A stretch of DNA of 32,000 nucleotides from Candidatus Saccharimonas aalborgensis (GTDB lineage: Bacteria; Patescibacteriota; Saccharimonadia; Saccharimonadales; Saccharimonadaceae). Where the stretch lies: assembly GCF_000392435.1 (NCBI RefSeq), contig NC_021219.1, positions 720,001 to 752,000 of the forward strand, given 5' to 3'. Shown here one piece after another: positions 9,946-32,000 of this stretch (position 1 is its first letter; each line of letters begins with the position of its first letter). Under the pieces are notes generated by a model. That model saw nothing but the letters and a program-made list of their open reading frames with translations. It was not told the DNA's origin and did no database searches. The translations under genes and the position numbers were made by a program.

Positions 9946-9979
9946 CATTATCTGAGTTAGTAATCAAAAAGGAAATTAC

Positions 9980-10285
9980 ATGAAAGCAGTCGTGAAGATC
10001 GCTGGCAAGCAGTATATTGTCAGCGAAAAAGAGACCCTCATGGTGGACCTCCTCCCTGAAGGCACAAAAGAGCTCGATCTCGACGCACTTCTCGTGATTG
10101 ATGGCGACAAAACAACTATTGGCACGCCGCTCATCAAGGGAGTGAAAGTAAAAGCGAAGGTCGTTGAGCCAAAAGTTGGCGGCGAGAAACTCCGCATTAT
10201 CCGCTACAAGAGCAAAAAACGCGTGAATACCCAGACGGGACACCGTCAAAAGTATACCAAGATTGAGATACTCTCAATAAAATAA
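9980..10285 (+). CDS. rplU: 50S ribosomal protein L21
   Basis: 101 aa: MKAVVKIAGKQYIVSEKETL ... GEKLRIIRYKSKKRVNTQTGHRQKYTKIEI, a typical L21. RBS aaaggaaa. Confidence 0.95.
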   Translation: MKAVVKIAGKQYIVSEKETLMVDLLPEGTKELDLDALLVIDGDKTTIGTPLIKGVKVKAKVVEPKVGGEKLRIIRYKSKKRVNTQTGHRQKYTKIEILSIK

Positions 10286-10292
10286 GAAATAG

Positions 10293-10320
10293 CGGCCTCC
10301 GAAAAGGAGGTCGTTTTTTT
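10293..10320. terminator. rho-independent terminator between convergent rplU and the GT-C gene
   Basis: cggcctcc (10293-10300) pairs with ggaggtcg (10306-10313), loop gaaaa, followed by T7 (10314-10320). It lies between two convergent genes, so it may serve both. Confidence 0.8.
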
Positions 10321-11476
10321 ATCCTACCCATGCACCGATATAGAAAAAGACAATGTTGGTGACAAGCAACAGAAATGAAGAAGCACCGATACCAACAAGT
10401 AATGGCCTAGAGATACGGTGGCGAAAAAGTGCAAGACCGAGAAATAGCGGGAAAATAGAGAGAATGTAGCGATTGATGCTCATCATTGAGCCAGCGCTTA
10501 GAGTGAGAACAAACGGTGCAAGGCAATATAACAGCCAGCGCCAGCCAAGTGTTTTGTAGGTTGCTATACAGAGAAAGCTATAGACGGCAAGGTACCAGAC
10601 GTCGCGAATATCTGAATGAAGGAACATGTTTGAAATGTAGTTGGATGAAAACTTGCCCCAGATGGTTTGGGCATGAATGAAAGCGAGGGCATCGCCGCGC
10701 GTGATGAATTGAAATACCATAAAGGCGAGCATTCCGAGTGGTGCCATAATGAGCGGAATGAGTTTGCGGTATTCAATAGGTTGACGCAAGACAATACGCC
10801 GACGTCGGACACTGATAAGCTCAAGGAAAAAGAAAATAACAAGACAGATACCCTGGACGCGGGTTGCGGTTGCCAGTGCCGCGAGAAGTCCCGCGAGAGC
10901 GTAGCGATGTTGCCTATACGAAAGCAGGCTCCCTGCAATGAGCAGCATGAATAAACTCTCAGTATAGCCAGTTGCAAGGAAAAATGATGTAGGGAAAAGC
11001 ACTAACCCCATAAGCATAAACTTGGGGGCGGCACTATCACGAATGCGGGCATGTCGAAGCTCGGCAATTGCCCAGTAGTACAACACAACGACTAGCGTGA
11101 GAGCACTCATCCAGTCAATAATGAGGAGAGACCAATCAATTGGTATGCCACTTATAACGCTAAGACCGTGCGTGATCATTGGATAAAAGGGAAAAAAGGC
11201 AATACGTGCTCGCGCAGGACTTGTGGGTGTGCTGGCGTCGTAGCCAGACGTAGCGATATTGTAGTAATGTTCGCTGTCATAGTACAAGATATTGTTGAGC
11301 GGTGGGGAAAATGCGGCCAGTCGGTAGTCATGAGTGGGGTAACGGCGGAGATAGTCACCCCTTGACCATGTGCCAAGTACTGTTACTGCCACTAAAAAAC
11401 AGGCCATGGTAACAATAAGCACGACCCAAGGATGACTTGACCAGAGTAAAGACAGCCTTTGTTTTGCGCTACGCAT
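10319..11476 (-). CDS. polytopic membrane glycosyltransferase, PIG-V/GT-C-like mannosyltransferase family
   Basis: 385 aa with about 10 TM segments. The N-terminal loop motif YYDSEHYYNIATSGYD resembles the WDSxWYxxIAxxGY motif of PIG-V-like mannosyltransferases. Confidence 0.55.
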   Translation of the reverse strand: MRSAKQRLSLLWSSHPWVVLIVTMACFLVAVTVLGTWSRGDYLRRYPTHDYRLAAFSPPLNNILYYDSEHYYNIATSGYDASTPTSPARARIAFFPFYPMITHGLSVISGIPIDWSLLIIDWMSALTLVVVLYYWAIAELRHARIRDSAAPKFMLMGLVLFPTSFFLATGYTESLFMLLIAGSLLSYRQHRYALAGLLAALATATRVQGICLVIFFFLELISVRRRRIVLRQPIEYRKLIPLIMAPLGMLAFMVFQFITRGDALAFIHAQTIWGKFSSNYISNMFLHSDIRDVWYLAVYSFLCIATYKTLGWRWLLYCLAPFVLTLSAGSMMSINRYILSIFPLFLGLALFRHRISRPLLVGIGASSFLLLVTNIVFFYIGAWVG

Positions 11477-11579
11477 TGAGTATTACTATACCGTGGTGAT
11501 TTGCTGGTGACAATGCGCTTATTTTTGACCAGGCATCATGGTATAATTGTACTAGCGAAAGAGAGGGAAAACGCACAGC

Positions 11580-13925: not shown

Positions 13926-15584
13926 ATGGTCAAAAAACCTTCTGTTGACGGCTTTATTCCACGACGCTCGCCTGGGGCAATAGGCGAGTATCATCAGGGG
14001 TATACCCCAGTTTTGCCAGCGCCGGTCAGCGAAGCATCTGGTCTGAAGCGGGCGGAGACTAAGAGTGCGCCAGTATTGGCTGCGAGCGGTCAAGCATTGA
14101 GTCGCGCGGACGTCGATGAGTCACTTAGGCAAATTGACGAGTCGTCAGTAGTAGAGATTGCAGAAAAAAGGCATAAGCGTTTCCGACGACGAACCGCTAA
14201 GCGGCCCGTGTCTTCTCGACGCAAACTCGTGAAGTGGCTAGTGATTGCTGTTATCACCACGATGGTGGTGTTTGCCGGCTGGTTTGGTGTCAAAGTGCTC
14301 CTCGCAGGTCATGCAGTATTTAAAGGAGATTTTTTCGGTATATTGCAACAGAGAGAACTAAAACAGGATGCTAATGGACGTAGTAATGTATTGATTGTCG
14401 GTACGTCTGAAGATGATCCGGGGCATCAAGGCGCAACTCTGACAGATTCAATCATGATTCTCAGCATTGATCAAAAAAATAAGAACGCTTATATGATCAG
14501 TATCCCTAGGGACATGGAGGTACGATATGGACGTTCGTGCGTCGGAACGGGTAACAATGCGGGTAAAATAAACGCATTCTTTGCTTGTTCAAATGATGAT
14601 TTCAGTTCAGATTCCGCCGAGACCGAGCGTCAGAACGAGGCGCGTAAGTTCTTTGGCGATATCGTCGGGCTGGATATTCAGTACAGTGTACATGTCAACT
14701 ACAGTGTGATGCGTGATCTTGTGGGAGCGCTGGGTGGTATTACTGTGACCATTGAGAGCCGCGATCCACGTGGGCAGATGGATGCAAACTTCGACTGGAA
14801 ATGTAGAGGTGGTAACGCCTATGCGAGCTTGGCAACGATGAAGAAAAATTGCCCGCCCAACGGCCATTTTATTGATTATCCAAATGGGCCGGTGACGCTC
14901 GATGCTGAACACGCTCTGTATCTTGCACAGGCACGTGGTGATGTCGAAAACTATGGTTTTGAGATGTCAAACTTTGATCGTGAGAAAAATCAGCAAAAAA
15001 TTATTGTTGCAATCAAAGAGAAGGCCATGAGCAGCGGCACTCTGACTGACATTGGAAAAGTCATGGGTATTATCGACGCAATTGGAAAAAATTTGCGTAC
15101 CAACTTTGACACTAGCGAGATCAGGACCTTGACCTCACTTGCAAAAGACATTCCGTCATCAAGCGTCCAAAGTATTAGCCTCATCGACAATCAATTGGTT
15201 GATCCTTCCGGCCAGCCGAGAGCGGGCTTATATAATTTCTCAAAAATACAAGCGTTTCTCAAGAAAAGGTTGAGCACCGATCCACTACTTGCCGAAGGCG
15301 CGCAAGTGACGGTTCTTAACGGGTCAGGAGTGACAGGTGCCGCTCAGAAACAAGTCGATACTCTAGCAGACATAGGGATAGACGCGACGGCAGGGAATGC
15401 GCCGTCGGGAGAGTATTCGGCAAACATCATTTATCAACTAACCGATAAAAAGCCCGCAACTGCCAAAAAATTAACTGAGCTCTACGGAGTAACACCAGTC
15501 ACAACCGCGCCTCCAGTGACGGTCAGTGAAGGCGTGGACTTTGTCATCATTTTGGCACCTCCCACTAAGTCAGCTACTCCGTAG
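13926..15584 (+). CDS. LytR-CpsA-Psr (LCP) family cell-envelope phosphotransferase with C-terminal LytR_C-like domain
   Basis: 552 aa with an N-terminal cytoplasmic tail and one TM segment. The LCP core is NVLIVGTSEDD...TLTDSIMILSIDQKNKNAYMISIPRDMEV. The C-terminus has VTVLNGSGVTGAAQK. Confidence 0.85.
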   Translation: MVKKPSVDGFIPRRSPGAIGEYHQGYTPVLPAPVSEASGLKRAETKSAPVLAASGQALSRADVDESLRQIDESSVVEIAEKRHKRFRRRTAKRPVSSRRKLVKWLVIAVITTMVVFAGWFGVKVLLAGHAVFKGDFFGILQQRELKQDANGRSNVLIVGTSEDDPGHQGATLTDSIMILSIDQKNKNAYMISIPRDMEVRYGRSCVGTGNNAGKINAFFACSNDDFSSDSAETERQNEARKFFGDIVGLDIQYSVHVNYSVMRDLVGALGGITVTIESRDPRGQMDANFDWKCRGGNAYASLATMKKNCPPNGHFIDYPNGPVTLDAEHALYLAQARGDVENYGFEMSNFDREKNQQKIIVAIKEKAMSSGTLTDIGKVMGIIDAIGKNLRTNFDTSEIRTLTSLAKDIPSSSVQSISLIDNQLVDPSGQPRAGLYNFSKIQAFLKKRLSTDPLLAEGAQVTVLNGSGVTGAAQKQVDTLADIGIDATAGNAPSGEYSANIIYQLTDKKPATAKKLTELYGVTPVTTAPPVTVSEGVDFVIILAPPTKSATP

Positions 15585-15609: not shown

Positions 15610-16392
15610 ATGGATTTGCTCAAGTCACATAAGCGTCGTTCGCGGATAAGTGAAGTCCTCTATATTACTCTCAATATTGGCCTGGCGCTGTCACTGTTTG
15701 TCGTGGTTCTTTCCGTCCAATCAACTTGGCTAGCATATCTTTTGGTGCTACTAAGCAAATGGCGTGCTCTTGCTGTGCGTCCGAGATTTTGGTTTGCCAA
15801 TCTTGTCGCCAATCTCGTCGACATTATTGTCGGGTTAGCGGTTGTGACGCTTATGTACGCTGCATCGGGTATCGTACCGCTCCAGGCTGCGTTGGCAGTT
15901 ATCTACAGCGTGTGGCTACTTTTTATTAAGCCTCGCTCGAGTAAATTATACGTTGCAATCCAGGCAGCAGCAGCCGTCTTTTTTGGAGTCACGGCTCTTT
16001 CGCTCGTTGCCTATGCCCCACACTCGACCATATTTGTCGCTGGTATGTGGCTGATAGGCTATTCGTCGGCACGTCACGTACTGGGTAGTTATGAAGAGAA
16101 CATGACGGTGCTCTATAGTCTTATTGCCGGGCTCATGTTTGCCGAACTGGGATGGCTAGGATATCACTGGCTATTTGCTTATACGCTTCCTGGATTTGGA
16201 CAAATAAAATTATCCCAACTTGCTATCCTGACGACTCTCTACTGTTTTGTTGCAGAACGTGCCTATGCAAGTTACCATCGACACGGCGTCGTCAAAACAC
16301 GCGACATCCTGATGCCCACGCTGCTCGCACTCAGTATCACGATAGTTTTGGTGATATTTTATAACGATGTAAGTGCTATAAAGTCAGTATAG
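15610..16392 (+). CDS. hypothetical polytopic membrane protein
   Basis: 260 aa with about 7 hydrophobic segments and no recognised family. TGaTATAAT lies at 15590-15598, only 11 nt upstream of the ATG, and no SD is present. Confidence 0.6.
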   Translation: MDLLKSHKRRSRISEVLYITLNIGLALSLFVVVLSVQSTWLAYLLVLLSKWRALAVRPRFWFANLVANLVDIIVGLAVVTLMYAASGIVPLQAALAVIYSVWLLFIKPRSSKLYVAIQAAAAVFFGVTALSLVAYAPHSTIFVAGMWLIGYSSARHVLGSYEENMTVLYSLIAGLMFAELGWLGYHWLFAYTLPGFGQIKLSQLAILTTLYCFVAERAYASYHRHGVVKTRDILMPTLLALSITIVLVIFYNDVSAIKSV

Positions 16393-17274
16393 TCACTGTG
16401 CACGCCGAAAGGCGAGACAAAATCCATCGGTTTTAAGATGGTCAAGGTTCCGTGAAACTGCGCGAGCGATGATCTGAGGGTGTTGGCGCGGATCAGCTTC
16501 GAGAATAAGGATCGATCCCACCTGTGTTACTCTGGGAAGTTGATCAAATAGTTCGTATATCAGCGCCAACCCACCTTCATCGGCGAAGAGAGCTTCTGGT
16601 GGTTCTGCATCAGTTTCGGGAGAGCACTGCCAGGAGTGATCAACATAAGGGAGATTGGCAATTACGTACCGGTAGTTCATTGAATCAACTGAGTGAAGCA
16701 GGTCGGAACGTATGCACGTAACGTTTGCAGCGAGGAGGCGAGCGTTTTCTTCGGCAATGCGTAAGGCATGATGACTATTGTCACTGAGTGTCACCTCAAG
16801 ATGCGGGTATTCAAGACAGGCAGTAATACCCAGGCAGCCACTCCCGGTGCCAATATCGATGAGCTTGGCAGGGTTGGTAGTGACGTATTCTCCTAATAAC
16901 TGAATGATTGTCTCGGATTCGGGTCGCGGAATTAATGTCGCGGGTGTTACTTTAAACAGTCTTCCGTAAAACTCCTTATGGCCAATAATGTAGGCAATCG
17001 GTGTGCGATCGAGCCGAAGGTCAAGGCGTGCATTGGCGATATTGAGTTCTCTCAAAGAGAGGAAGTTATGCGCATGGGCGTGCAAAAAAGTTCGGGATTT
17101 TCGGAGGGTATGCGAAAGAATGATCTCGGCATCGAGCAGGGCACTCGTGATACCAATATCAGCAAGTTGCTCAGCAGCATCCCGAAGCCAGTGGTTGATG
17201 GTAGTGTGTTTATCGAGAACAAAGGTCATAACACCTTGATTGTAGCACGAATCACTAGACACTATGGCGCTCAT
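16393..17274 (-). CDS. prmC: release factor glutamine N5-methyltransferase PrmC/HemK
   Basis: 293 aa with the SAM motif IDIGTGSGCLGI. The catalytic tetrapeptide is at the expected position but reads NLPY (VIANLPYV) instead of NPPY. It lies in the rpmE-prfA-prmC neighbourhood. The start could alternatively be M16 (17229). Confidence 0.85.
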   Translation of the reverse strand: MSAIVSSDSCYNQGVMTFVLDKHTTINHWLRDAAEQLADIGITSALLDAEIILSHTLRKSRTFLHAHAHNFLSLRELNIANARLDLRLDRTPIAYIIGHKEFYGRLFKVTPATLIPRPESETIIQLLGEYVTTNPAKLIDIGTGSGCLGITACLEYPHLEVTLSDNSHHALRIAEENARLLAANVTCIRSDLLHSVDSMNYRYVIANLPYVDHSWQCSPETDAEPPEALFADEGGLALIYELFDQLPRVTQVGSILILEADPRQHPQIIARAVSRNLDHLKTDGFCLAFRRAQ

Positions 17275-17324
17275 GTATTACACTCTTAGTAGTTAATTGA
17301 TCATCAATAAAGGAGATTACGTCT

Positions 17325-17873
17325 ATGTCACAAGATCAACCGCATCATCAAGGAGACCACGCTCCAGCTCAACCGCCGGTGGTAGAGCAACCACCAATGC
17401 AACAACCAGTAAATCCTTATTTTGCTCAGTCTCAAGGAGCTCCCGTGCAGTATATTGTTGCAAGTCAGTCACTCAAAGGTATTGGCGGCTGGCTTCTCTT
17501 TTGGGTAATTATCCTTGGCTTAGCGGGAGTGGGCTATATTACGCTATTCTTTGCTGCACTTACGAATCTTGATTCGCCAAGTGCTATAGTGATGGCGATT
17601 TTTGCGCCATTCTTGGCAATAACTGCTCTTGGAGCTGTGGTCTCTATCTCAATGCAAAAGAAGCTTGGTAAACTCGCAGCTATGGCTTATATCGGTGTGG
17701 CGGTGCTCTATAGTGTTATCAATGCGATTGTTTCGTTTGCTGCCGGCACAGGTGGTAGCAGCTCGAACATCGCTACTCTCATGGGTAGCATTGTTGGCAC
17801 AATCGTCTTTGGCGGATTGATGATCCTCTACTTTATTCAGTCGAGGCGCGTCAAAGAAACACTCGTCAACTAA
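17325..17873 (+). CDS. hypothetical membrane protein with Pro/Gln-rich N-terminus
   Basis: 182 aa with RBS aaaggaga (17309-17316). There are four hydrophobic segments after a P/Q-rich 45-aa head. No family was recognised. Confidence 0.6.
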   Translation: MSQDQPHHQGDHAPAQPPVVEQPPMQQPVNPYFAQSQGAPVQYIVASQSLKGIGGWLLFWVIILGLAGVGYITLFFAALTNLDSPSAIVMAIFAPFLAITALGAVVSISMQKKLGKLAAMAYIGVAVLYSVINAIVSFAAGTGGSSSNIATLMGSIVGTIVFGGLMILYFIQSRRVKETLVN

Positions 17874-17893
17874 GAGACGCGGAAAGTACGAAT

Positions 17894-19065: not shown

Positions 19066-19386
19066 TTATTTTTCGGTTTTTTGGGCTTTGCGAGCGTTTT
19101 GCTTCTTGGCTTTGGCGGCCATTTGATGACGCAATTCCTCGGCAGCCTTTCGGCGAGCTTCAAATCGGTCGACGCGGCCTTCGGTATCGATAATCTTTTC
19201 CTCACCAGTAAAGAATGGGTGAGAGGCAGACGATACGTGGACTTTTATAAGAGGATACTCGTTGCCATCTTCCCATTTGATCGTCTCAGAACTCTGAGCA
19301 GTCGAACGGGTGAGAAAGCTAAAGCCTGCTTGTTCGTCGCTAAATACGACCAGGCGATAATCTTGTGGGTGAATACTGCTTTTCAT
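19066..19386 (-). CDS. rpmE: 50S ribosomal protein L31, type B (Zn-independent form) with Lys/Ala-rich C-terminal extension
   Basis: Starts at the internal Met of the 192-aa ORF-track entry ([17 protein letters not shown]...[14 protein letters not shown]...GRVDRF). It matches type-B L31 (YkgM-like) and has no CxxC motifs. The upstream 86 codons of the ORF have no L31 similarity and run through the divergent promoter region. Confidence 0.9.
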
Positions 19387-19457: not shown

Positions 19458-19466
19458 TGCTATGAT
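19458..19466 (+). promoter_or_regulatory. extended -10 element TGcTATGAT upstream of the 568-aa ORF
   Basis: tgctatgat at 19458-19466, the same TGnTAtaAT architecture seen upstream of ftsA, ftsZ, parA, frr, lysS and others. If it is used, the transcript would start near 19473, which favours ATG 19494 over GTG 19467 as the start codon. Confidence 0.4.
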
Positions 19467-21173
19467 GTGGAGGAAGAGAAAGTAAACATAAACATGCCGG
19501 TAGAGCAGGAGATTGGAACACACGAAGCAGCGACGCAGATGGATGCGATTGTTGCTGGCGTGCGCGAACACCATGATCTGAATGAGACAGTGCAATTTGA
19601 TGATAGTGACCCTTTGGGTGAAGAAAACGTCCAGTCTTTGACACACCACCTGGAAATGATGCTCGAGGCGGTAGAAGATTTTGGTTCGTACCGAGATGGT
19701 GATTATGTCGATGAGGAGTTTGTGCAATATGTCATACAGGGCGGATACTCGATTGAAGCAGCATCCGGGCTTATCGATGCGATCCGGAGGTGCGAAGTTG
19801 CCTTCTCTGAGGAAAATCAAGGCGAAGCAACACAGCTTCTGCGCGTTGTCGAGGCAATCCCTTCCGAGTTACTACAGGAGATATACACAGCTGATCCTGA
19901 CAACAAGGCAAACCCTATAACTGCATTACTGAATAGTATTCCGCTGGATGGCAGTCATGCAGCGCAGCTTTTGCGTATTCTCGACAAGTGTCAGGATGAA
20001 GATATGTCAACGGTTGACGCATTGACGTACCCTGAGTATATGAGGCTATTTGCTGCGATGGAGTCAAATGAGCGCGATTTTGAGCTGGCGCGCATTCCGT
20101 CTCATCCCGAGAGTACTTCATATGAAGCAATCGCTGATTTCAATCAGAGGGTTGTTAATCGTGTCTATTGGTTGATGGGTGAGCAACTTGGCCTTCCTAT
20201 GCATATCGTTGACGCTTATATTGCAAATGCGCGTTTCCGCCATACTCACCTCATGCCTAACGGGTCGGAGTTACTAACGGCGTTTGAGGGTGACCGGATA
20301 GCCGATGATATCTATGGCATCGCGGCATGTGTCGAAGCGGTAGGTATCGATGACTTTAAGCGACTCGATGAGGCGTTTACTCTGGAAACTCCTGAGATCT
20401 ATCGCCCAGAAGATTTACGCATCATGCGCGGCATACTCGATGGCGATGAAATGATACTCGAGGAACTGAGAAGGGGCGATCTGACGGTCGTATTCTTCGA
20501 TGCAAGGGGTGACACAAAGAGCGTTATCGTTGACTCAGTAAGAGCATACCGTAAAACTTCGGGGAGAGTTCTATTTTTTGAGATGTCCGGGGCTGAAACA
20601 GTAAAAGCGCGTAAGAAACAACTCGTAGAAAGAGGCCTTCACCCAAGTACCGTGGTATTTGACAGTCATGGCTCGCCGGGCTCAATAGAGGGTAATCGTG
20701 GAAAAAGTCGGTATCGAATCGTAAGTGAGCGGCGGGCAATGCGAACAAGGCGTGATGTTTTTGTGGGAGATATAGTGGATCAATTATTGAGTGATGGGTT
20801 TATGCAACCAGGTCGAGGTATTGATGACTCCAGTGGGGCGTCTGGAGCAGTTGAGATATTCTTTAGTGCATGCAGTACTGATCAAGAGGTCGATAGAGGT
20901 GTGGGTAGCACTCGCGCTAGGAGTGTCGCACAAGCTGCAATAGATGCTACGATTGGTAACCAAAATAGGGTGCTCGTCTATGGAAGCCGTGCACCAATGC
21001 ATCTTCTATGGGGCAATGGCAGGATACGTTATATTGATGACGATCACCATAATGGTACTGGTGAGGATAGGTCAGTAATGACGCGGTATACCTTCGATCC
21101 AGATCGTTTCGCGGATGAAGGAATAGTATTTGAATATATTGATGGAGTAGTACATGACAGGAGAGCAGCATGA
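19467..21173 (+). CDS. hypothetical protein with C-terminal CHAT/caspase-like (clan CD-like) His-Cys domain
   Basis: 568-aa ORF (GTG 19467, alternative ATG 19494). The N-terminal 330 aa or so are acidic and helical with no recognised family. The C-terminal region has an alternating beta/alpha pattern with [16 protein letters not shown] (His401, nt 20667-20669) and [13 protein letters not shown] (Cys469, nt 20871-20873), then ...[10 protein letters not shown]. This resembles the CHAT/DUF4347 signatures (..HG.. and ..LSACxT..). The assignment rests on motif recognition only. Confidence 0.6.
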
Positions 21174-21607
21174 GTGAGATCCCTGGTGATGTGAAGCCCA
21201 TTATCGGCGTAATCGAAAGACCGATCGATTACCGCGAGGAGTATGAGCTTCTCGCTCAACTATTAGCGCAAGTTCTCTATGAGTATCGGCAAGGACGTCC
21301 AAGTGATGGCTTCGATACGTTAATGCGTGAGGATGGAGGTCGTCTCCAGGTTGTTTCCCCGAGTCAACAAAAGCTTCGCATCAATGTGATGGAGAATGAT
21401 CAAGAAACAGGAGAAGAAATCACTGAGACAATGCACGCGGATATGATGGGGAACGAGACAGTGGTCAGTCACGGTGTTTCATCAGATAAGGATGGCGTGC
21501 TGAGCGATCTCGCGCCACTTCGCTATGATGCCTATGGATGCGAGGTACTGACTGACATGATCGAGTATCTCTTTGTCATCCAGGCAGCGAGACGCCGATC
21601 GCCATAA
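21170..21607 (+). CDS. hypothetical acidic protein, translationally coupled to the CHAT-like protein
   Basis: 145 aa. Its ATG overlaps the upstream TGA in an ATGA junction (21170-21173). No family was recognised. The protein is acidic (ENDQETGEEITETMHADMMGNE). Confidence 0.65.
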   Translation: MSEIPGDVKPIIGVIERPIDYREEYELLAQLLAQVLYEYRQGRPSDGFDTLMREDGGRLQVVSPSQQKLRINVMENDQETGEEITETMHADMMGNETVVSHGVSSDKDGVLSDLAPLRYDAYGCEVLTDMIEYLFVIQAARRRSP

Positions 21608-21633
21608 GGGGTAGACAAAAGAAATCATATCTG

Positions 21634-21650
21634 ATACCCTGAGAGGGTAT
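21634..21650 (+). terminator. hairpin closing the two-gene cassette (weak terminator candidate)
   Basis: ataccct-gag-agggtat is a perfect 7-bp stem at 21634-21650, followed by attagttt. The loop is short and the T-run weak. Confidence 0.35.
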
Positions 21651-21722: not shown

Positions 21723-22427
21723 ATGGCCGTAGAGGTTGATATCAAGGCTTTGCTCGAAGCCGGTGTTCATTTCGGACACAAAACGAGTCGTTGGCACCCA
21801 AAGATGGCGCCATACATCCATAGCAAACGGCAAGACAGTCATATCATTGACCTGACAAAGACCGTCGATGCGCTTGAAAAAGCGCTGCCATTCATCACAA
21901 AAGTTGTCGCGAGTGGTAAGCCAGTCCTCTTTGTAGGGACAAAAAAACAAGCAAAGGAAGCAGTAAAAGCAGCCGCCGAATCATGTGGTCAACCATACGT
22001 TACTGAACGTTGGGTTGGCGGCATGCTGACCAATGTCACGACGACAAACGCCCAGATAAAGAAACTACGTGATCTCGAACGCCGGATGCTAAATGGTGAT
22101 CTCGAAAAGCGCTACAACAAACTTGAGGTTCAGCGATATCAAGAAGAGATTGATTCTCTGAATGTGAAGTATAGCGGCATCAAAGAGCTTAGTGGAAAAC
22201 CCGGCGCAGTCATCGTGATAGATACACTTGTTGATGCGAATGCAATTCGTGAAGCAAATAACCTGCATATTCCTGTTGTTGGCGTGGTTGATACCAATGC
22301 TGATCCGAGTGCTGTATCGTATGCCATTCCTGGTAACGATGATGCGATAAAAGGCACACAACTATTGCTTGATTATTTTGTCGCGGCAGTACGAGAGGCT
22401 GGTGTTGCCAAGAAAGAGGCAGCATAG
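21723..22427 (+). CDS. rpsB: 30S ribosomal protein S2
   Basis: 234 aa with LLEAGVHFGHKTSRWHPKMAPYI and VGTKKQA, colinear with S2. Confidence 0.96.
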   Translation: MAVEVDIKALLEAGVHFGHKTSRWHPKMAPYIHSKRQDSHIIDLTKTVDALEKALPFITKVVASGKPVLFVGTKKQAKEAVKAAAESCGQPYVTERWVGGMLTNVTTTNAQIKKLRDLERRMLNGDLEKRYNKLEVQRYQEEIDSLNVKYSGIKELSGKPGAVIVIDTLVDANAIREANNLHIPVVGVVDTNADPSAVSYAIPGNDDAIKGTQLLLDYFVAAVREAGVAKKEAA

Positions 22428-23100: not shown

Positions 23101-23805
23101 ATGTACGAACGCTACCAACCTCACTTCGAAAACGAGTCTCACAAAGATTTTGAGTACGATGAATCTGGTAATGAGGTTGATCTGAGGCAAGAGGCCGAAG
23201 TCTTTTCTGACCACGAGAGAATTGATAACGGTCGTGATAGTGATATCAAAACACAACTAGCAAAGCTCCGTGAGAGCTTAAGCGAGGATAGCGACGGAAT
23301 TATTCACCTTGTAATCCCGGCGTATACCTATGACTTTAGTGAAAATCCTTTTGTGGGATTAGGGACGCATCGTACCAAAACCTATGAAATATCGCGCTAT
23401 ATCGACGTAGTGTTTTTGCACCGCTTTATGTATCAAGACATTATTGTCTGTGGTTTACAGTCAAGACAGTTTGTGGATGAGGGCAGTAGGGCATCTTTTG
23501 TCAAAAAAATGCGTGAGACGGGTGGAATACCGATCGACACTCGCGAACATCGGTCGTTTGATATCCTGGGCATGGAGTTTTGTCCCTATGTTGAGTACCA
23601 TTCCACAGACGCTTTTTTCAAACTGTATCACACCGTTATGCCACGCGTTGCGGATCGACCACACTATCCGCTCGATGTTTGGTTGATTTTTGATGCAAAC
23701 GCCTACCAGGAAGTGGAGGGCGCAAGTGACTTTCGGCGGGCGTTTCGTCTGAAAAGTGGTTACGATCGTCGCGCTAGTTTACTCGGCATAGCGCAGATCA
23801 ACTAA
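23101..23805 (+). CDS. hypothetical protein (occupies the usual pyrH position)
   Basis: 234-aa ORF between tsf and frr with no recognised family. The N-terminal 65 aa are acidic. No SD precedes the ATG, and AT-rich -10-like hexamers (tattat/tataaa, 23084-23092) lie immediately upstream. Confidence 0.6.
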   Translation: MYERYQPHFENESHKDFEYDESGNEVDLRQEAEVFSDHERIDNGRDSDIKTQLAKLRESLSEDSDGIIHLVIPAYTYDFSENPFVGLGTHRTKTYEISRYIDVVFLHRFMYQDIIVCGLQSRQFVDEGSRASFVKKMRETGGIPIDTREHRSFDILGMEFCPYVEYHSTDAFFKLYHTVMPRVADRPHYPLDVWLIFDANAYQEVEGASDFRRAFRLKSGYDRRASLLGIAQIN

Positions 23806-24402: not shown

Positions 24403-25089
24403 ATGCCGAGCTCCCTTCCTACTCATATAGGCTATATCGTTGATGGTAATCGACGCTGGGCCAAGCAACGCGGCCTTTCTGCCTCGGAGGGTCACGCTGC
24501 TGGCTATGAGGTTGTAAAAACTATTATTATCGACACCATCAAACGAGGTGTCCCGTATGTGAGCGCGTATATATTTAGTACCGAAAACTGGCAACGAAGC
24601 CCCATCGAGGTTAACTTCTTAATGAAGCTTATTGTGCGAGTGCTGACCGATGATCTACATATCTTTATCGAAAATAATATTCGACTTAGGATAGCGGGAT
24701 CAAAAAAACGGCTGACGAAGGGGGTCTTGCGAGCTATTGAGGAGGCTGAACAACAAACGAAGCATTTGACTGGCGGGCAAGCCATCATCTGTCTCAATTA
24801 CGGTGGACATCAGGAACTTGCTGATGCATTTGAAGCGATGCGAGACCACGTCGGCGACCAAGTCATTACACCGGACGTCATCGAGAAATTTCTGTATACA
24901 CCAGACGTACCGGCATGTGATTTAATAGTTCGAACAAGCGGTGAACAGCGGCTCAGTGGCTATATGTTATGGCGCTCGACTTATAGTGAGCTGTTATTTC
25001 TCAAAAAGCACTGGCCGGACATGACAACAAAAGACGTTAGCAGTATACTAAAGGAATACGAACGCCGCGAACGACGGCATGGATCATAG
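24403..25089 (+). CDS. uppS: undecaprenyl (isoprenyl) diphosphate synthase
   Basis: ATG 24403 lies 1 nt after the frr stop. It has HIGYIVDGNRRWAKQRGL, FSTENWQRS and IRTSGEQRLSGYMLW, typical of cis-prenyltransferases. The ORF-track start 24337 lies inside frr. Confidence 0.92.
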   Translation: MPSSLPTHIGYIVDGNRRWAKQRGLSASEGHAAGYEVVKTIIIDTIKRGVPYVSAYIFSTENWQRSPIEVNFLMKLIVRVLTDDLHIFIENNIRLRIAGSKKRLTKGVLRAIEEAEQQTKHLTGGQAIICLNYGGHQELADAFEAMRDHVGDQVITPDVIEKFLYTPDVPACDLIVRTSGEQRLSGYMLWRSTYSELLFLKKHWPDMTTKDVSSILKEYERRERRHGS

Positions 25090-27002: not shown

Positions 27003-27743
27003 ATGGCGCCAATCTTGGTAGTAAAAGTCGGTACAAGCACTTTATTGTCTCGACATGAAGCGCCGATGGGTACCTTTGAGGTGATTGCAAATAGCATAAT
27101 CTCACTAAGGGAACGGTATAGAATTGTCTTGGTCACTTCGGGAGCAATCGGTTTTGGCGTCGTGCAGGCTGGTATTGGTATGCGCCCAACAGAGATAGCA
27201 AAGCTCCAGGCACTTTCGATGATGGGGCAGGTGGGCTTACTGAGGAGATGGCGTGAGGCATTTGACCCTCTGGCAATAGGCCAAGTGCTGGTGACGCGTG
27301 CTGACCTTGAGCGTCAGGCGTCGTCAGATAGCTTTCGTCAGAGTGTAGGGCAACTATGGGAGTATGGAGCCATACCAATTCTCAATGAAAATGATGCGGT
27401 GAGTAATGACGAAATCAGCTTTGGCGACAACGATCAGTTGGCGGCCGAGGTTGCAGTTGCGATTGGTGCGCAGCATCTCATATTGCTGACAGACCAGGAC
27501 GGTATTCGAAGCGATTTTGGCACCATGAGCGAGCAGCGTATCCCGGAGATTTCGGTAGAAGACGTAGGCAAACATCTTACGACTGCGGGCTCACCAGTGG
27601 GAAAAGGTGGTGCATTGAGCAAGGTCCAGGCGGCGCGTATTGCACTTGAGGTCGGTATAGAGGTAGTGATCGCTCACGCAGCCTCTCCGAATTCAATCCA
27701 GGATGCCCTCGCTGGCAAAATTGGCACGAAGCTAGTACAATGA
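27003..27743 (+). CDS. proB: glutamate 5-kinase (kinase domain only, no PUA domain)
   Basis: 246 aa, colinear with the ProB kinase domain: LVVKVGTSTL, IVLVTSGAIGFG, LVTRADLE, PILNENDAVSNDEISFGDNDQLAAEVA, LILLTDQDG and GKGGALSKVQAA. It ends where the PUA domain would begin. Confidence 0.85.
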   Translation: MAPILVVKVGTSTLLSRHEAPMGTFEVIANSIISLRERYRIVLVTSGAIGFGVVQAGIGMRPTEIAKLQALSMMGQVGLLRRWREAFDPLAIGQVLVTRADLERQASSDSFRQSVGQLWEYGAIPILNENDAVSNDEISFGDNDQLAAEVAVAIGAQHLILLTDQDGIRSDFGTMSEQRIPEISVEDVGKHLTTAGSPVGKGGALSKVQAARIALEVGIEVVIAHAASPNSIQDALAGKIGTKLVQ

Positions 27744-27752
27744 AAGCCACAT

Positions 27753-28994
27753 ATGAGATTGTCGCATAATTTTACTCGGACTCTTAAGGACGTGCCCGCA
27801 GATGAGGTGTCGCGAAATGCTCAATTACTCATTCGCGCCGGCTATGTGTATAAGGTAATGGCGGGCGTCTATGCCTACACACCGCTTGGTATTAAAGTAC
27901 TCGAGAATATCAAGCAAGTTGTACGTGAGGAGATGAATGCTATCGGTAGCCAAGAGATCATCATGAGCAGCCTGCAGCGAAAAGAGACCTGGGAAGTAAC
28001 CGACCGATGGGATGACAAAAAGGTTGATGTGTGGTTTAAGTCAGCGCTTCAGGATGGTACAGAAGTAGGGTTTGGCTGGTCACACGAAGAAGCAATCCTC
28101 GAGATGATGCGTCAGTACATCAAGAGCTACAAAGACCTACCCGTGTCGGTGTATCAGATACAGACCAAGTTACGAAACGAATTGCGTGCCAAGAGCGGTA
28201 TTATGCGCGGACGGGAATTTATCATGAAGGACATGTACTCTCTCCATGCCACTGAAGCGGACTGTGATGCGTACTACGAGCGTGCTATTGCGGCATATAA
28301 GCGGGTCTATGAGCGGCTAGGGATAGGCGAGGACACCTTTATTACCTTTGCAAGTGGTGGTGCATTTACAACGTTTAGCCATGAGTTTCAGACGATTTGT
28401 GAAGCGGGCGAGGACACCCTCTTCGTGAATGAAAGTCATACCGTGGCGGTCAACGAGGAGGTGCTGGATGATGCCACGAGGGAGCTAGGAATTGATAAGG
28501 AATCTCTTGTGCCAGTGGTGAGCGCCGAATCAGGCAATATTTTCAAATTTGGCACCGAAAAAGCCGAAAAGATGAAACTATACTTTACCGGCGAAGACGG
28601 TGAACAGCATCCTGTCTACCTGGCTTCATACGGTATTGGCATCACACGCGCGATGGGTGTAATTGTTGAGAAGTTTGCAGACGATAAAGGGATTGTTTGG
28701 CCAACGTCGGTCGCTCCCGCACTTGTCTATCTTGTGCAGATCGGCCAGCAGCAGTCACTGCGGCATGCCAATAGTCTTTATGATGAGCTGATGTCCCAGG
28801 GTATAGAGGTAATGTATGATGATCGCGATGAACGTCCAGGTGCTAAATTTGCCGATAGCGAATTGATGGGTATCCCGTATCGTGTTACCGTCAGTGATCG
28901 ACTAATATCCGATGAAAAATACGAATTTACCTCGAGAAAAACCGGTGAAACCGAACTATTGACGCGTGACGAATTACTTGCTAGACTTAGGTAA
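27753..28994 (+). CDS. proS: prolyl-tRNA synthetase, bacterial type lacking the INS editing domain
   Basis: 413 aa, colinear with bacterial ProRS: MRLSHNFTRTLKDVPADE..LLIRAGYV, class II motif 2 YQIQTKLRNELRAKSGIMRGREFIMKDMYS and SHEFQ..GED. Only about 35 aa lie where E. coli ProRS carries its INS editing insertion. The C-terminal anticodon-binding domain is present. Confidence 0.88.
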   Translation: MRLSHNFTRTLKDVPADEVSRNAQLLIRAGYVYKVMAGVYAYTPLGIKVLENIKQVVREEMNAIGSQEIIMSSLQRKETWEVTDRWDDKKVDVWFKSALQDGTEVGFGWSHEEAILEMMRQYIKSYKDLPVSVYQIQTKLRNELRAKSGIMRGREFIMKDMYSLHATEADCDAYYERAIAAYKRVYERLGIGEDTFITFASGGAFTTFSHEFQTICEAGEDTLFVNESHTVAVNEEVLDDATRELGIDKESLVPVVSAESGNIFKFGTEKAEKMKLYFTGEDGEQHPVYLASYGIGITRAMGVIVEKFADDKGIVWPTSVAPALVYLVQIGQQQSLRHANSLYDELMSQGIEVMYDDRDERPGAKFADSELMGIPYRVTVSDRLISDEKYEFTSRKTGETELLTRDELLARLR

Positions 28995-29080
28995 TTCGAG
29001 ATCGTCTTACGGAGGGGTAACAACGCTAATCAAGAGGATTAGGTCCTTCCACGGGGCTCGAAATTAGAGGTATTACAAGT

Positions 29081-29536
29081 ATGAAAAAAGCATATCAGAT
29101 TACAGAAGCTGGCCGCAAAGAACTCGAGGCAGAACTCGCTGAACTTAAGAGTCGTCGTGGTGATATTGCGGCGAAGATTGCCGAAGCGCGTGACTACGGT
29201 GATTTAAGTGAAAATGCAGAGTATGATAGCGCGCGTGAAGAGCAAGGTCTTGTCGAAACGCGTGTTGCGGAGATCGAAGATATTCTCATGAACGCCGAAG
29301 AGATCAAGTCCCGGAAGTCCAGCAAGATTCAGTTGGGGAGCACCGTTGAGCTCAAGACGGGGGCAAAAAAGTTTAGCTATACCCTGGTCGGTCCTGTTGA
29401 AGCAGATCCGCTGAGCGGCAAAATTAGCAACGAGTCGCCCATCGGTGTTGCATTGCTTGGTAAGGTCGTTGGCGACAAGGCCACCATCACTACACCAAAG
29501 GGTGATACTACCTACACCATCGTCTCGATAGCATAA
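29081..29536 (+). CDS. greA: transcription elongation factor GreA
   Basis: 151 aa with an N-terminal coiled coil carrying the acidic tip (AEARDYGDLSENAEYDSAREEQ) and a C-terminal FKBP-like domain (ISNESPIGVALLGKVVGD). Confidence 0.95.
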   Translation: MKKAYQITEAGRKELEAELAELKSRRGDIAAKIAEARDYGDLSENAEYDSAREEQGLVETRVAEIEDILMNAEEIKSRKSSKIQLGSTVELKTGAKKFSYTLVGPVEADPLSGKISNESPIGVALLGKVVGDKATITTPKGDTTYTIVSIA

Positions 29537-29554
29537 GCGATGTCCTTTCAGTAT

Positions 29555-29590
29555 ACAATATTCCACATATAGTGGGATATTGTTTATTTT
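29555..29590 (+). terminator. strong rho-independent terminator after greA
   Basis: 12-bp stem: acaatattccac (29555-29566) pairs with gtgggatattgt (29572-29583), loop atata, followed by ttatttt (29584-29590). Confidence 0.85.
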
Positions 29591-29625
29591 ACATACAAAA
29601 AACACTAGCGCTAGCGTAATAAGGT

Positions 29626-29634
29626 TGGTACTAT
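29626..29634 (+). promoter_or_regulatory. extended -10 element TGgTACTAT upstream of the metallophosphoesterase-like gene
   Basis: tggtactat at 29626-29634, the same TGn-hexamer architecture as the other promoters in the window. It implies a leader of about 105 nt before ATG 29748. Confidence 0.4.
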
Positions 29635-29747
29635 GAAGGTAAGTTCGCTTTTTGGGAGGCGGCTCAGCAAAATTACAAACGAGGGTAGACAAAGCTGTGG
29701 GCGTGAGGGCAAGCATCTTGTCAATCTTTTTAAAATAGGGGAGAAAT

Positions 29748-31031
29748 ATGGCAGAAAGAATAGGCAAGACACAGGAAGTTTTGCATGATGACGGTAATGT
29801 GGCAACTGAGTTTGTCGCGGGCGCCGAACAAGCACCGCAGCCTGTCGTCGACACTGCACAGGAGTTCTTGAGGGCTGCAGGAGTTGATCCGAGCAGAGTA
29901 AACTATTCTGTTCACCTCAAACCTGTCGAGACGAAAGATGACGATGGTAATGTTGTTGGTACAACCTACAAGGCCACGAGCGGCTGGGCAAAATCAACTC
30001 GTCCCGCTAAAGGTGATGCTGAGCGTGAGCTACTCGAAACCTACGCTCACTATACAACGCCCCCGTCACCACGCATTAGTCCCGTTCGCACTAGTAGCTA
30101 CCGCACCGGCAAAAGGGATAAGATTGGTGTTATCCTTCCTGATACTCAGTTTGGTTATCGCTATGTAGACGGCATTTATGTGCCCATTCATGATCCTCGT
30201 GCCCTCAACGTTGCGCGTCAGGTAATCCGCTGCATTGGCACCGAACTCGACCTCGTTGTTCATGTTGGCGATGCGCTCGACTACCCCCATTTCGGCAAAC
30301 ATGATGATGATCCTGCGACCTGGAATACTACTCAAAAAACAAATGCGGACTTCCAGCGGGAAGTTACTGCTGGTGCAATGCGCGCTGATGCGCCAAATGC
30401 AAAAAGTGTATGGCTCGAGGGAAATCACGAGAAGCGTCGCCGTGTGTATGTGGAAGATAAGGCACCTCACCTTGTCGGTGAGCGAGTTGTCAACCCGGAT
30501 GGTTCCCCAGGTGAGTTGGCCCTATCTTTGGCAAATGTATTCAGTTTAGGGAAGCTTGGTATCGATTACATCGAGGGCTATCCCAATAACTGGTACCGCA
30601 TCAATGACCGACTCATGGTAATTCATGGCAGCCAATCAAACGTAAAGGGGAGTACTGTGCACGGCATACTGCATAACACGGCGCATCCCTCGATGTCTGT
30701 CATTAGCGGCCATACGCATCGAGCTGAAAAGGCCACCAAGACGATATACCTACCCGACGGAACACCACGAACTGTTCAAGCCGAATCATTTGGTACGTTG
30801 GCAGACATTCGTGGAGCGGTGCCGGCTGGCAATATGGGACGCACTATGGATAATCTTCACACCGAAAGCTTACCAAACTGGCAGCAGGGCTTAGGAATTG
30901 TCTATTACCGTGAAGGTGATGCACCGTTTAAGACCGAATTTGTGCCAATTCATACCTTTGATGGCCATGAAGCACTGTTTGATGGTAAGGTATTTACTCC
31001 AACGGTCGACGAGTACGGCAACCCACTATAA
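29748..31031 (+). CDS. calcineurin-like metallophosphoesterase domain protein with unknown N-terminal region
   Basis: 427 aa with RBS ggggaga. The ordered MPE motifs are GVILPDTQ (motif I variant, D132), VHVGDALDY (GD), WLEGNHEKR (GNHE), MVIHGSQ (H) and ISGHTHRAE (GHxH). The first 125 aa or so have no recognised similarity. Confidence 0.7.
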   Translation: MAERIGKTQEVLHDDGNVATEFVAGAEQAPQPVVDTAQEFLRAAGVDPSRVNYSVHLKPVETKDDDGNVVGTTYKATSGWAKSTRPAKGDAERELLETYAHYTTPPSPRISPVRTSSYRTGKRDKIGVILPDTQFGYRYVDGIYVPIHDPRALNVARQVIRCIGTELDLVVHVGDALDYPHFGKHDDDPATWNTTQKTNADFQREVTAGAMRADAPNAKSVWLEGNHEKRRRVYVEDKAPHLVGERVVNPDGSPGELALSLANVFSLGKLGIDYIEGYPNNWYRINDRLMVIHGSQSNVKGSTVHGILHNTAHPSMSVISGHTHRAEKATKTIYLPDGTPRTVQAESFGTLADIRGAVPAGNMGRTMDNLHTESLPNWQQGLGIVYYREGDAPFKTEFVPIHTFDGHEALFDGKVFTPTVDEYGNPL

Positions 31032-31086
31032 CCAGAGACTACAGTCTGATATACTGTACCTAGTAATTAACTAGTGGGACTACTTG

Positions 31087-32000
31087 ATGGCGACATTGAA
31101 GGAATTGCGCGATGAGCGCCTACGAAAATTAGATGATCTAAAAAAGCTAGGAGTCAACGCCTATCCTGCTGAGTCGGCGCGCACTCATACATGCCGCGAG
31201 GTAGCAGAACAGTTTGAGTCGCTCGAAGGCCAGACGGTCAAGGTCGTTGGTCGTTTGATCGGAACACGCAAATTTGGCAAACTGGCCTTTCTCGTGCTGC
31301 GTGATATGAGCGGCCAGGTGCAGCTATTTCTCAAAGCAGATACTATCGAACCACTCAATGCACCACTATCGCAGCTGGGCATGGATGAGTTAAACCTGCT
31401 AGATCCAGGTGATTTCGTCGAAGCAGAAGGAGTCGTTATCCGCACACAGACGGGTGAAGTGAGTGTCGATGTACGGAAATTTCGTCTTCTCACGAAATCA
31501 CTGCGACCGATGCCAACTGAGCAAGAGGGGTTTCGTGACAAAGAAGAGCGTTTTCGTCGTCGCTACGTCGACATGAACGTCAACCGCGACGTCCGTGAAC
31601 GATTTGTTCGCCGAAGTAAGTTTTGGCAGGCGACACGTAAGTTCCTCGATGATCATGGATTCTATGAGGTAAATGTTCCAGTCCTCGAGCATACGACGGG
31701 TGGAGCTGATGCAACGCCGTTTGTGACTCACATGGATGCGCTTGATCAGGATTTCTACTTACGGATTAGTCACGAACTTCCGCTCAAGCGGCTCCTCGGA
31801 GCTGGGTTCGAAAAAGTGTATGATGTTGGGCCGCGCTTCCGCAACGAGAATTATACTGATGAGCATCTGCCCGAGCACATTGCGATGGAATGGTACTGGG
31901 CGTATGCCAACTGGCAGGACGGCATGAAGTTCATGGAAGAGATGTATCGCTATGTTTTGTCAGAAACCTTTGGCACGTTGCAATTTGATATTCAGGGCAA
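31087..32000 (+). CDS. lysS: lysyl-tRNA synthetase, class II (3' end outside window)
   Basis: The frame is open from ATG 31087 to the window end and is not in the ORF track because it has no stop. It has an OB-fold anticodon-binding region (VKVVGRLIGTRKFGKLAFLVLRDMSGQVQLF), RFRRRYVDM, and class II motifs FYLRISHELPLKRLL and VYDVGPRFRNE. TGaTATACT lies at 31047-31055. Confidence 0.92.
   Translation, partial: MATLKELRDERLRKLDDLKKLGVNAYPAESARTHTCREVAEQFESLEGQTVKVVGRLIGTRKFGKLAFLVLRDMSGQVQLFLKADTIEPLNAPLSQLGMDELNLLDPGDFVEAEGVVIRTQTGEVSVDVRKFRLLTKSLRPMPTEQEGFRDKEERFRRRYVDMNVNRDVRERFVRRSKFWQATRKFLDDHGFYEVNVPVLEHTTGGADATPFVTHMDALDQDFYLRISHELPLKRLLGAGFEKVYDVGPRFRNENYTDEHLPEHIAMEWYWAYANWQDGMKFMEEMYRYVLSETFGTLQFDIQG

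Follow-up and report, generated by a model that had tools for sequence, protein, structure and literature searches.

Cysteine peptidases of clan CD are built as an alpha/beta/alpha sandwich with a mostly parallel sheet, in which strand 3 bears the catalytic His at its C-terminal end and strand 4 the catalytic Cys at its end. The cysteine protease domains (CPDs) of the TcdB and MARTX toxins, which form MEROPS family C80, belong to this clan, and proteases that resemble caspases take part in several defence systems. The Saccharibacteria live as ultrasmall epibionts; their genomes measure about 1 Mb, and a large proportion of their genes has no assigned function. We identified a pair of overlapping genes, L336_0742 and L336_0743, in a stretch of 32,000 nucleotides (nt) from Candidatus Saccharimonas aalborgensis (NC_021219.1, positions 720,001 to 752,000 of the forward strand; referred to as the window). 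The product of the first gene has a predicted C-terminal domain that resembles caspases and CPD toxins and is structurally closest to Tce1 of the Pseudomonas aeruginosa H3 type VI secretion system (H3-T6SS), a putative TcdB-CPD-like cysteine protease (PMC13323088). New here are an unannotated family of a known enzyme kind with a new architecture and a partner, its conserved chromosomal address and an unusual dimorphism within one species. The literature searched contained nothing on L336_0742/L336_0743 or on caspase-like proteins of Saccharibacteria.

The main features of the pair are given below. Residues of the large protein are numbered in a 559-residue form counted from ATG 19494 or in a 568-residue form counted from GTG 19467 (offset 9; H392 equals H401 and C460 equals C469).

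19494 to 21173, plus strand: large gene (L336_0742, WP_015641894.1), 559 residues from ATG 19494 or 568 from the alternative start GTG 19467 (list of open reading frames (ORFs), NCBI record)
19494 to 19601, plus strand: acidic N-terminus of the large protein, residues 1 to 36 (559-residue form), predicted to be disordered (AlphaFold2 predicted local distance difference test (pLDDT) below 50); isoelectric point (pI) 4.41
19602 to 20474, plus strand: all-alpha acidic N-domain, residues 37 to 327, with helices at 42 to 327 at high pLDDT; pI 4.26
20475 to 21170, plus strand: alpha/beta C-domain with predicted clan CD-like cysteine protease fold, residues 328 to 559 (AlphaFold2 strand/helix order, Foldseek); conserved core of the family
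20490 to 21089, plus strand: dimorphic segment of the protease domain, residues approximately 342 to 541 in the 568-residue form (strain comparison)
20667 to 20669, plus strand: CAT codon of the putative catalytic His (H392/H401), followed by Gly (family conservation, AlphaFold2 model)
20871 to 20873, plus strand: TGC codon of the putative catalytic Cys (C460/C469; family conservation, AlphaFold2 model)
21159 to 21164, plus strand: Shine-Dalgarno sequence AGGAGA of the small gene, inside the 3' end of the large gene and 5 nt before the small-gene ATG
21170 to 21607, plus strand: gene of the small acidic partner (L336_0743, WP_015641895.1), 145 residues (ORF list, NCBI record)

The stop codon of the large gene and the start codon of the small gene share the sequence ATGA at 21170-21173, and together with the Shine-Dalgarno sequence this upheld the initial annotation, which had read the two ORFs as a coupled unit. 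That annotation, made from the sequence alone, had placed neither protein in a recognised family, and neither of them gave a match in Pfam, NCBIfam or PADLOC (for PADLOC none at E ≤ 1). The large protein, which is identical to database entry P0166, has a mass of approximately 62 kDa and a pI of 4.66, with a pI of 7.2 for the C-domain. As had been stated, both proteins are acidic (pI 4.66 and 4.45) and the large one has no signal peptide; a transmembrane segment was found in neither (maximal 19-residue Kyte-Doolittle mean 0.87 for the large and 0.95 for the small protein).

A word-index homologue search returned only proteins of the same species for either protein, and its repetition with an alignment of 53 family sequences yielded no others. 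For the large protein, an exhaustive HMMER search returned 182 homologous cluster representatives at E ≤ 1e-3, 96 of which were found at E ≤ 1e-10. Most homologues of the large protein are 540-780 amino acids (aa) long, both domains align family-wide, and the conserved core comprises approximately residues 270-530. All distant homologues are annotated as hypothetical protein or carry no protein name, and the large protein represents an unannotated family for which there is no Pfam model. An alignment of the window protein with 52 distant members of 16-25% identity, 53 sequences in all, has five invariant columns (D338, E372, H401, G402, and C469 in the 568-residue numbering). H401 and C469, already named in the initial annotation, are the most conserved residues of the whole family (99 and 98% among 141 members), followed by D338 (96%), M446 (94%), D349 (93%), E372 (91%), and G402 (85%). 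The dyad motifs of the window protein are DSHGSPG for His-Gly and FFSACS for Cys.

AlphaFold2 gave a pLDDT of 40.9 when only three close sequences were used, and a pLDDT of 87.1 and a predicted template modelling score (pTM) of 0.86 with the alignment of 53 sequences. In the model (559-residue numbering) a disordered stretch (residues 1-36) is followed by an all-helical region (42-327) and an alpha/beta domain (331-549). Strands 331-335, 359-363, 386-390, and 452-458 of the C-domain alternate with helices, and the order along the chain is beta1-alpha-beta2-alpha-beta3-His ... alpha-beta4-Cys. H392 belongs to a Ser-His-Gly loop that joins strand 386-390 to the following strand (392-394), and C460 is found two residues past strand 452-458. 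Judged from the order of strands and residues along the modelled chain, the predicted strand order and the placement of His and Cys agree with the clan CD layout, and the His-Gly ... (Ala/Ser/Gln)-Cys motif of the clan is present and conserved. Similarity to solved structures was also significant: the best match in a Foldseek search against the PDB was Tce1 of P. aeruginosa H3-T6SS (9qpe_G; E = 1.2e-3, probability 1.00, template modelling (TM) score 0.61 on the target) and the second was the caspase CED-3 (4m9r_A; probability 0.95, TM score 0.31 on the target). Rossmann-like enzymes were among the weak matches, Craspase (7xsq_B, probability 0.10) was listed far down and separase was absent from the top 50. 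A fold search against the viral structures of BFVD gave no significant match, and the N-domain had no significant Foldseek, Pfam or PDB-sequence match outside the family.

As modelled, the C-domain shows a fold resemblance of the clan CD type (caspase/CPD-toxin type) with a conserved His-Gly...Cys dyad. The initial annotation had described a helical acidic N-terminal region followed by a caspase/CHAT-like C-terminal domain; the fold and the His401/Cys469 dyad stood, and the assignment to a named sequence family did not, as profile searches placed the protein in neither Peptidase C80 nor Peptidase C14 nor CHAT. We infer from the modelled fold that the large protein is probably an active or self-processing endopeptidase. 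Located where strands 1 and 2 end, the invariant residues D338 and E372 suggest that its specificity may differ from that of caspases and may be directed to basic residues.

The S. aalborgensis protein is an outlier in its family, being 28-33% identical to all other members, which share 30-47% identity mutually. At residues 340-345 (559-residue numbering) it has GDTKSV instead of the GD(H/Y)NGA present in approximately 90% of the members, and it is missing the basic C-terminal motif KRT.V..I of the family.

To the synteny analysis, a search with exact peptide patterns contributed only five genome loci and eight metagenome loci, and the flanking genes were matched by tblastn. The loci that carry a name are all Saccharimonadales or Saccharibacteria metagenome-assembled genomes (MAGs). 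Nine distinct lineages were compared (window/L001, L002-4, L005-7, L008, L009/13/14, L010, L011, L015, and L016). In the window the pair is located at a divergent junction, with rpmE on the minus strand (19066-19386) on one side and rpsB on the plus strand (21723-22427) on the other. A divergent rpmE gene is found immediately upstream of the large gene in all nine lineages, and rpsB-tsf is found downstream in all six lineages with an informative flank (window/L001, L002-4, L008, L010, L011, and L015). Across these lineages the identity to the window is 25-33% for the large protein, 69-79% for rpsB and 64-76% for prfA. The gene order in CP065017.1 (L001) is prmC, prfA, rpmE, then the 559-aa and 145-aa genes, followed by rpsB, tsf, a gene for an unknown 234-aa protein and frr. 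A 695-aa homologue with 25-30% identity occupies the same junction and is followed by a 125-aa ORF and rpsB-tsf. The site between rpmE and rpsB was occupied in all related loci examined; in L011 the large gene is shortened to 441 aa and no small ORF follows it. A distant subfamily of 540-580 aa is encoded at other housekeeping-type loci (L012, L017, L018, L021, and L022); among these relocated copies only L012 keeps a small acidic downstream ORF, and one relocated copy abuts rpmA. No paralogue of the large protein was found in the window or in the fetched loci.

The same order is present in the cultured relative Southlakia epibionticum, in which rpmE (SEML1_0198, minus strand) and SEML1_0199-0201 (plus strand) are followed by rpsB, tsf, SEML1_0204, frr, uppS, rseP and a CPBP protease gene (PMC10633639). 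SEML1_0199-0201 are hypothetical genes of 966, 1122, and 462 nt without a Pfam or Foldseek annotation (PMC10633639, Tables S1 and S2). In a mirror-tree comparison addressing vertical descent, the identities of the large protein correlated with those of prfA and rpsB with rho values of 0.06 and 0.31, to be read against the saturation of the large-protein identities.

The evidence supports that the pair is a vertically inherited Saccharimonadales operon at a fixed address and not an inserted cassette. The initial annotation had regarded it as a self-contained unit inserted into and interrupting a block of translation genes. This was contradicted by the finding of the same junction in nine lineages, by the normal GC content of the pair (0.47-0.49, as in the rest of the window) and by the opposite orientation of rpmE and rpsB. 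A foreign insertion or mobile cassette is ruled out by the GC content, the conserved synteny and the lack of flanking repeats around the pair in the 32-kb window; neither mobile-element nor defence genes are located beside the pair.

Two short relatives, which consist mostly of the C-domain, were found in accessory surroundings. A 386-aa relative (L025, 4001-5161) is encoded beside a DDE transposase, a helix-turn-helix-Fic protein and a CHAP/TcdB_toxin_midN protein, and a 447-aa relative (L026, 4001-5344) beside a PhdYeFM/ParE toxin-antitoxin pair.

The small protein of 145 aa (approximately 15 kDa, pI 4.45) is soluble, and positional counterparts of 125-152 aa with a pI of 4.2-4.6 are encoded downstream of the large gene in eight of the nine syntenic lineages. 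An overlap of 1-8 nt between the large gene and the small ORF is found in L001, L002, L005, L009, L015, and L016; in L008 the distance between the two is at most 11 nt. The small proteins are barely alignable across lineages (13-26% identity); when a profile was made of the counterparts with the window sequence left out, the small ORF of the window ranked first of 180 six-frame ORFs (E = 0.003).

The window is 95.6% identical to CP065017.1 over 21.7 kb. Within the dimorphic segment at 20490-21089 the nucleotide identity in consecutive windows of 200 nt drops to 65, 70.5, and 52.5% without gaps, compared to 84-100% elsewhere and 93-100% in its flanks. The segment takes in the greater part of the C-domain, and the catalytic residues inside it are unchanged. 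The proportion of synonymous differences (pS) is 0.73, which means that synonymous sites are saturated, and the nonsynonymous divergence (dN) is 0.33. Substitutions are more frequent at third codon positions (110) than at the other two (61 and 53), and no adenine bias is seen. A repeat of the variable segment that could act as a template was not found in the 32-kb window. A diversity-generating retroelement is ruled out by the absence of this repeat and of an adenine bias, by the third-position excess and by the saturated synonymous sites. On the pattern of substitutions, the dimorphism represents an anciently diverged allele and not hypermutation in situ.

Among 26 public sequences of the S. 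aalborgensis type, two discrete classes of the C-domain were found, approximately 16 of the window type and approximately 10 of the other. No intermediates between these classes occur among full-length sequences; the truncated and apparently frameshifted P0181 is mixed, and P0007 looks like a frameshifted chimera of both C-domain alleles. The two classes share 62% protein identity, and neither exceeds 31% identity with any other member of the family, indicating that no donor lineage has been sampled. A second dimorphic block (aa 41-135) recombines independently of the C-domain block, as P0167 and P0175 carry one class of each.

At the extreme C-terminus (aa 542-568) and in the downstream small gene the nucleotide identity between the strains stays at 92-93%, and the small protein is 94% identical between the window strain and CP065017.1. 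It has a variable loop of its own (aa 93-115) with at least three variants, and the variants do not cleanly track the C-domain classes. The co-variation expected of a toxin/immunity pair, which the initial annotation had thought of, was therefore not seen: the protease domain is 62% identical and the partner 94%.

Within the large gene, the ratio of nonsynonymous to synonymous substitution rates (dN/dS) in comparison with the second strain is 0.23 in the N-terminal part, 0.12 in the variable segment and 0.31 in the C-terminal tail; the small gene has a value of 0.135. For prfA, rpsB, tsf and frr it is 0-0.02, and for known housekeeping genes overall 0-0.10. Both genes are under purifying selection that is less tight than that on the known neighbours. 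The dN/dS values of 0.12-0.31 and 0.135, together with the 182 homologous representatives and the conservation of H401 and C469 among 141 members, indicate that these are real genes and not chance ORFs.

The identity between the window (9496-31173) and CP065017.1 is mosaic, with 100% over 9496-11495 and 28287-31173 and blocks of 84-92% at, for example, 14496-14695, 15696-17890, and 24690-25086. Such a mosaic in the sequence comparison indicates that homologous recombination is frequent in the S. aalborgensis population.

The best explanation of these data, which we hold with moderate confidence, is a vertically inherited, lineage-specific Saccharimonadales operon that encodes a clan CD-type cytoplasmic cysteine protease regulated by a small acidic partner. 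The large product would be a soluble cytoplasmic protein whose acidic helical N-domain, specific to the family, is joined to a Cys-His C-domain of the clan CD type, and from its modelled fold it would act as an endopeptidase, possibly a self-processing one. Through the ATGA overlap the synthesis of the small acidic protein would be coupled to that of the large one, and by analogy with securin and separase or with a protease and its cognate inhibitor the small protein may bind the large one 1:1 and inhibit it, chaperone it or serve as an adaptor. Its contacts would more probably lie on conserved surfaces than in the variable region of the protease domain. Two ancient allele classes of the C-domain are kept within Ca. 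S. aalborgensis and recombine as blocks.

Several observations weigh against this explanation. The family of the large protein has no sequence-level tie to any peptidase family even when profiles are used (Pfam and PDB sequences, with full-length and C-domain profiles), and Pfam searches with 53 members gave nothing at E ≤ 0.1, including the C80, Peptidase_C14, and CHAT models. For the small partner no functionally characterised homologue was found (Pfam with eight partners, PDB-sequence profile search), and it is missing in the syntenic L011 and in four relocated copies. Truncated copies of the large gene are present in two complete MAG chromosomes of the same species group (QQS67946.1, 390 aa; QQR51198.1, 329 aa), which represent either real pseudogenisation or indel errors of long reads. 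SEML1_0199-0201, matched to the large family by position alone, are listed with 'core family = 0' and are non-essential at all passages of a transposon sequencing (Tn-seq) experiment (PMC10633639). If they are homologous to the pair, the module is dispensable in laboratory co-culture. The small gene is likewise truncated (95 aa, QQR51200.1) in the MAG chromosome that carries QQR51198.1.

The dimorphism and the fast evolution suggest that the target recognised by the enzyme is itself variable. The dimorphism may point to a variable target or regulator in a host, a phage or a competing strain, and with a variable target a role as effector with chaperone in the epibiotic lifestyle would be possible, as would, with lower probability, a role in defence or as toxin-antitoxin. 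It is conceivable, though we would not expect it, that the two allele classes are held by balancing or frequency-dependent selection and that the module acts in conflict, as host effector, in strain recognition or against phages, with the small protein as chaperone or inhibitor.

In the most serious alternative, which is nevertheless doubtful, the large protein is exported to the actinobacterial host or a competitor, where it cleaves a target or processes itself and releases its N-domain, and the small protein is its export chaperone. A small size, acidity and an adjacent gene are typical of secretion chaperones, and the partner (approximately 15 kDa, pI approximately 4.4) has all three. The nearest solved fold is the T6SS-delivered Tce1, the N-terminus is disordered in the model and the short C-domain-only relatives are found beside transposase, Fic, CHAP/TcdB_midN, and ParE genes. 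Such a role would also be consistent with the ancient two-allele polymorphism of the catalytic domain in one species and with the fast evolution of the family, whose members are 25-47% identical where prfA and rpsB are 61-84% identical. However, the large protein has neither a signal peptide nor a transmembrane segment, neither the 32-kb window nor any of the syntenic loci contains a secretion-system gene, and a fixed position beside ribosomal-protein genes is unlike that of most effector loci. The family's basic C-terminal motif forms a well-folded strand in the model and not a free tail.

Quite unlikely is a toxin/immunity, protease/inhibitor or abortive-infection module, in which a latent toxic protease is restrained by its partner until phage attack or stress frees it. 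Across the order the locus keeps its place among housekeeping neighbours, with no defence or mobile genes nearby, and shows no patchy distribution in variable or defence islands; two short C-domain-only relatives are found in accessory contexts. No PADLOC model matches either protein, which likewise speaks against the phage-defence module that had been suggested from the sequence. The coupled layout of a large protease-like protein with a small partner, the caspase-like proteases known from several defence systems, a domain dimorphism that fits an arms race and the short relatives near toxin-antitoxin and Fic genes would argue for such a module, but co-variation of the partner with the diverged protease domain is not seen (94% versus 62% protein identity), and the partner is missing in several members that keep the dyad, which is unexpected for an essential antitoxin.

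A still less probable proposal takes the large protein for a housekeeping enzyme that matures a ribosomal protein or translation factor and is co-expressed with rpsB-tsf, by analogy with the cysteine protease Prp, which is encoded between rplU and rpmA in Firmicutes. The deep conservation of the pair between rpmE and rpsB, its co-direction with rpsB with only a weak terminator between them, the relocated copy that abuts rpmA and the unusually long rpmE product of 106 aa are in line with this, yet synteny alone is weak functional evidence and only the neighbourhood suggests such a role. The dN/dS of 0.12-0.31 exceeds the 0-0.10 of known housekeeping genes, the dimorphism of the catalytic domain is hard to square with a conserved substrate, truncated copies exist, and the positional counterparts in S. 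epibionticum are non-essential (PMC10633639). The initial annotation had named a universal core gene with a housekeeping role as the finding that would count against its proposal; the position proved to be conserved, but L011 is without partner, copies are truncated and no housekeeping role could be assigned.

A non-proteolytic protein, with a Cys-His pair that serves transamidation, deamidation or acyl transfer or as a mere binding module, is the least probable, since the family's two most conserved residues are a His and a Cys at clan CD positions and the best structural matches are peptidases, even though no peptidase family matches in sequence, the fold match is moderate and Rossmann-like enzymes are among the weak Foldseek matches.

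The preferred reading, an inherited operon for a regulated cytoplasmic protease, turns two hypothetical proteins of the reference genome into a defined family with a testable fold, named residues, a conserved partner and a conserved address. The two-allele dimorphism is a signature usual for interactions with a host, phage or competitor, making the pair a reasonable candidate for host-interaction experiments. Even if it is only a regulated cytoplasmic protease, it would be a new branch of the caspase/CPD-type peptidases.

Two further elements may concern the transcription of the pair.

19458 to 19466, plus strand: TGcTATGAT, extended -10-like element and possible promoter of the pair (read in the sequence)
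21634 to 21650, plus strand: perfect 7-base-pair hairpin ATACCCT-GAG-AGGGTAT with a loop of 3 nt and a weak T tail, located after the pair and ahead of the rpsB leader (terminator scan)

The -10 sequence proposed in the initial annotation is indeed present, but a promoter scan found no complete two-hexamer sigma-70 promoter for the pair on the plus strand, and the element ends one base before GTG 19467. If it is real, transcription would start downstream of this codon, which does not fit the 568-aa form and speaks for ATG 19494 as the start codon. The public annotation WP_015641894.1 likewise starts at ATG 19494. A good two-hexamer promoter for rpmE was found on the minus strand (19424-19396). 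The hairpin before the rpsB leader, also noted initially, was confirmed by its listing in the terminator scan. The region between the small gene and rpsB has a fold z-score of -1.08, which means that its structure is not unusual, Rfam gave no match in the window, and the intergenic sequence is identical among strains and hence offers no covariation to score. An RNA element in the rpsB leader was dropped on the basis of the Rfam result and the z-score.

Other genes of the window were observed as well. The rpmE gene (19066-19386, minus strand) encodes an L31 protein of 106 aa with a Lys/Ala-rich C-terminal extension, and its relatives are annotated with 106-135 aa. The unknown 234-aa gene between tsf and frr (23101-23805, plus strand) gave no match to Pfam, NCBIfam or PADLOC models; it shares 98% identity with its counterpart in CP065017.1 and has a dN/dS of 0.11. 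In many bacteria pyrH occupies the position between tsf and frr (rpsB-tsf-pyrH-frr). In the window an AA_kinase gene (27003-27743, plus strand), which we take to be pyrH, is displaced and follows uppS, rseP and a CPBP/Rce1-like protease gene, according to the annotation of the collinear L001. The gap between tsf and frr is approximately 1.2-1.3 kb in L008 and L011 and absent in L010 and L015. SEML1_0204 of S. epibionticum is a non-essential hypothetical gene of 708 nt at this position, with Foldseek matches only to uncharacterised proteins (PMC10633639). Beside prmC, two membrane-protein genes are located at 17325-17873 and 15610-16392 (both plus strand); one product is weakly DUF2569-like (E = 2e-5, below the Pfam cutoff) and the other, of 260 aa, has no family on record. 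Both genes have a synonymous divergence (dS) between strains of approximately 0.57-0.60, far above that of their neighbours, and a dN/dS of 0.04.

When compared to known systems, the C-domain is structurally closest to Tce1 (9qpe_G). As in Tce1 and Tce2 the His precedes the Cys and each is placed at a strand end, with a spacing of 68 residues here, 54 in Tce1 and 50 in Tce2, and additional C-terminal beta-structure after the core is shared with Tce1 and the TcdB CPD. In contrast to these proteins, the window protein has a helical N-domain of 290 residues and a coupled small partner and lacks a T6SS or large-toxin context; the identity in the structural alignment is 15%, and no relation was found at the sequence level (Pfam including C80, PDB sequences). 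Activation by inositol hexakisphosphate (InsP6), as in CPD toxins, is unlikely in the bacterial cytoplasm. The caspases, metacaspases and orthocaspases (C14) are represented by the second-best structural match CED-3 (probability 0.95) and share the form of the His-Gly and (Ala/Ser)-Cys motifs (DSHGSPG and FSACS here), but the TM score on the target is 0.31, no Peptidase_C14 Pfam match was found and the large family has the invariant Asp338/Glu372 at the ends of strands 1 and 2. Polymorphic toxin/immunity pairs similarly combine a conserved N-terminal part with an enzymatic C-terminal domain that is highly diverged between close strains and a small gene immediately 3' of it. Here, however, aa 542-568 and the downstream gene remain 92-93% identical in nucleotide sequence, both C-domain alleles are homologous versions of one domain instead of different toxin folds, there is no trafficking domain, and the locus is fixed across the order. 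With separase-securin and the TPR-CHAT proteins (Csx29, Craspase) the large protein shares, according to the model, a large helical N-domain followed by a clan CD-type domain, and a small partner that could be an inhibitor or chaperone. It differs in having neither a CHAT Pfam match nor a CRISPR context and in a partner that has the size of a folded protein and is unrelated in sequence; Craspase 7xsq_B is only among the weak Foldseek matches (probability 0.10) and separase is outside the top 50. The likeness to separase-securin and TPR-CHAT is an analogy of design only.

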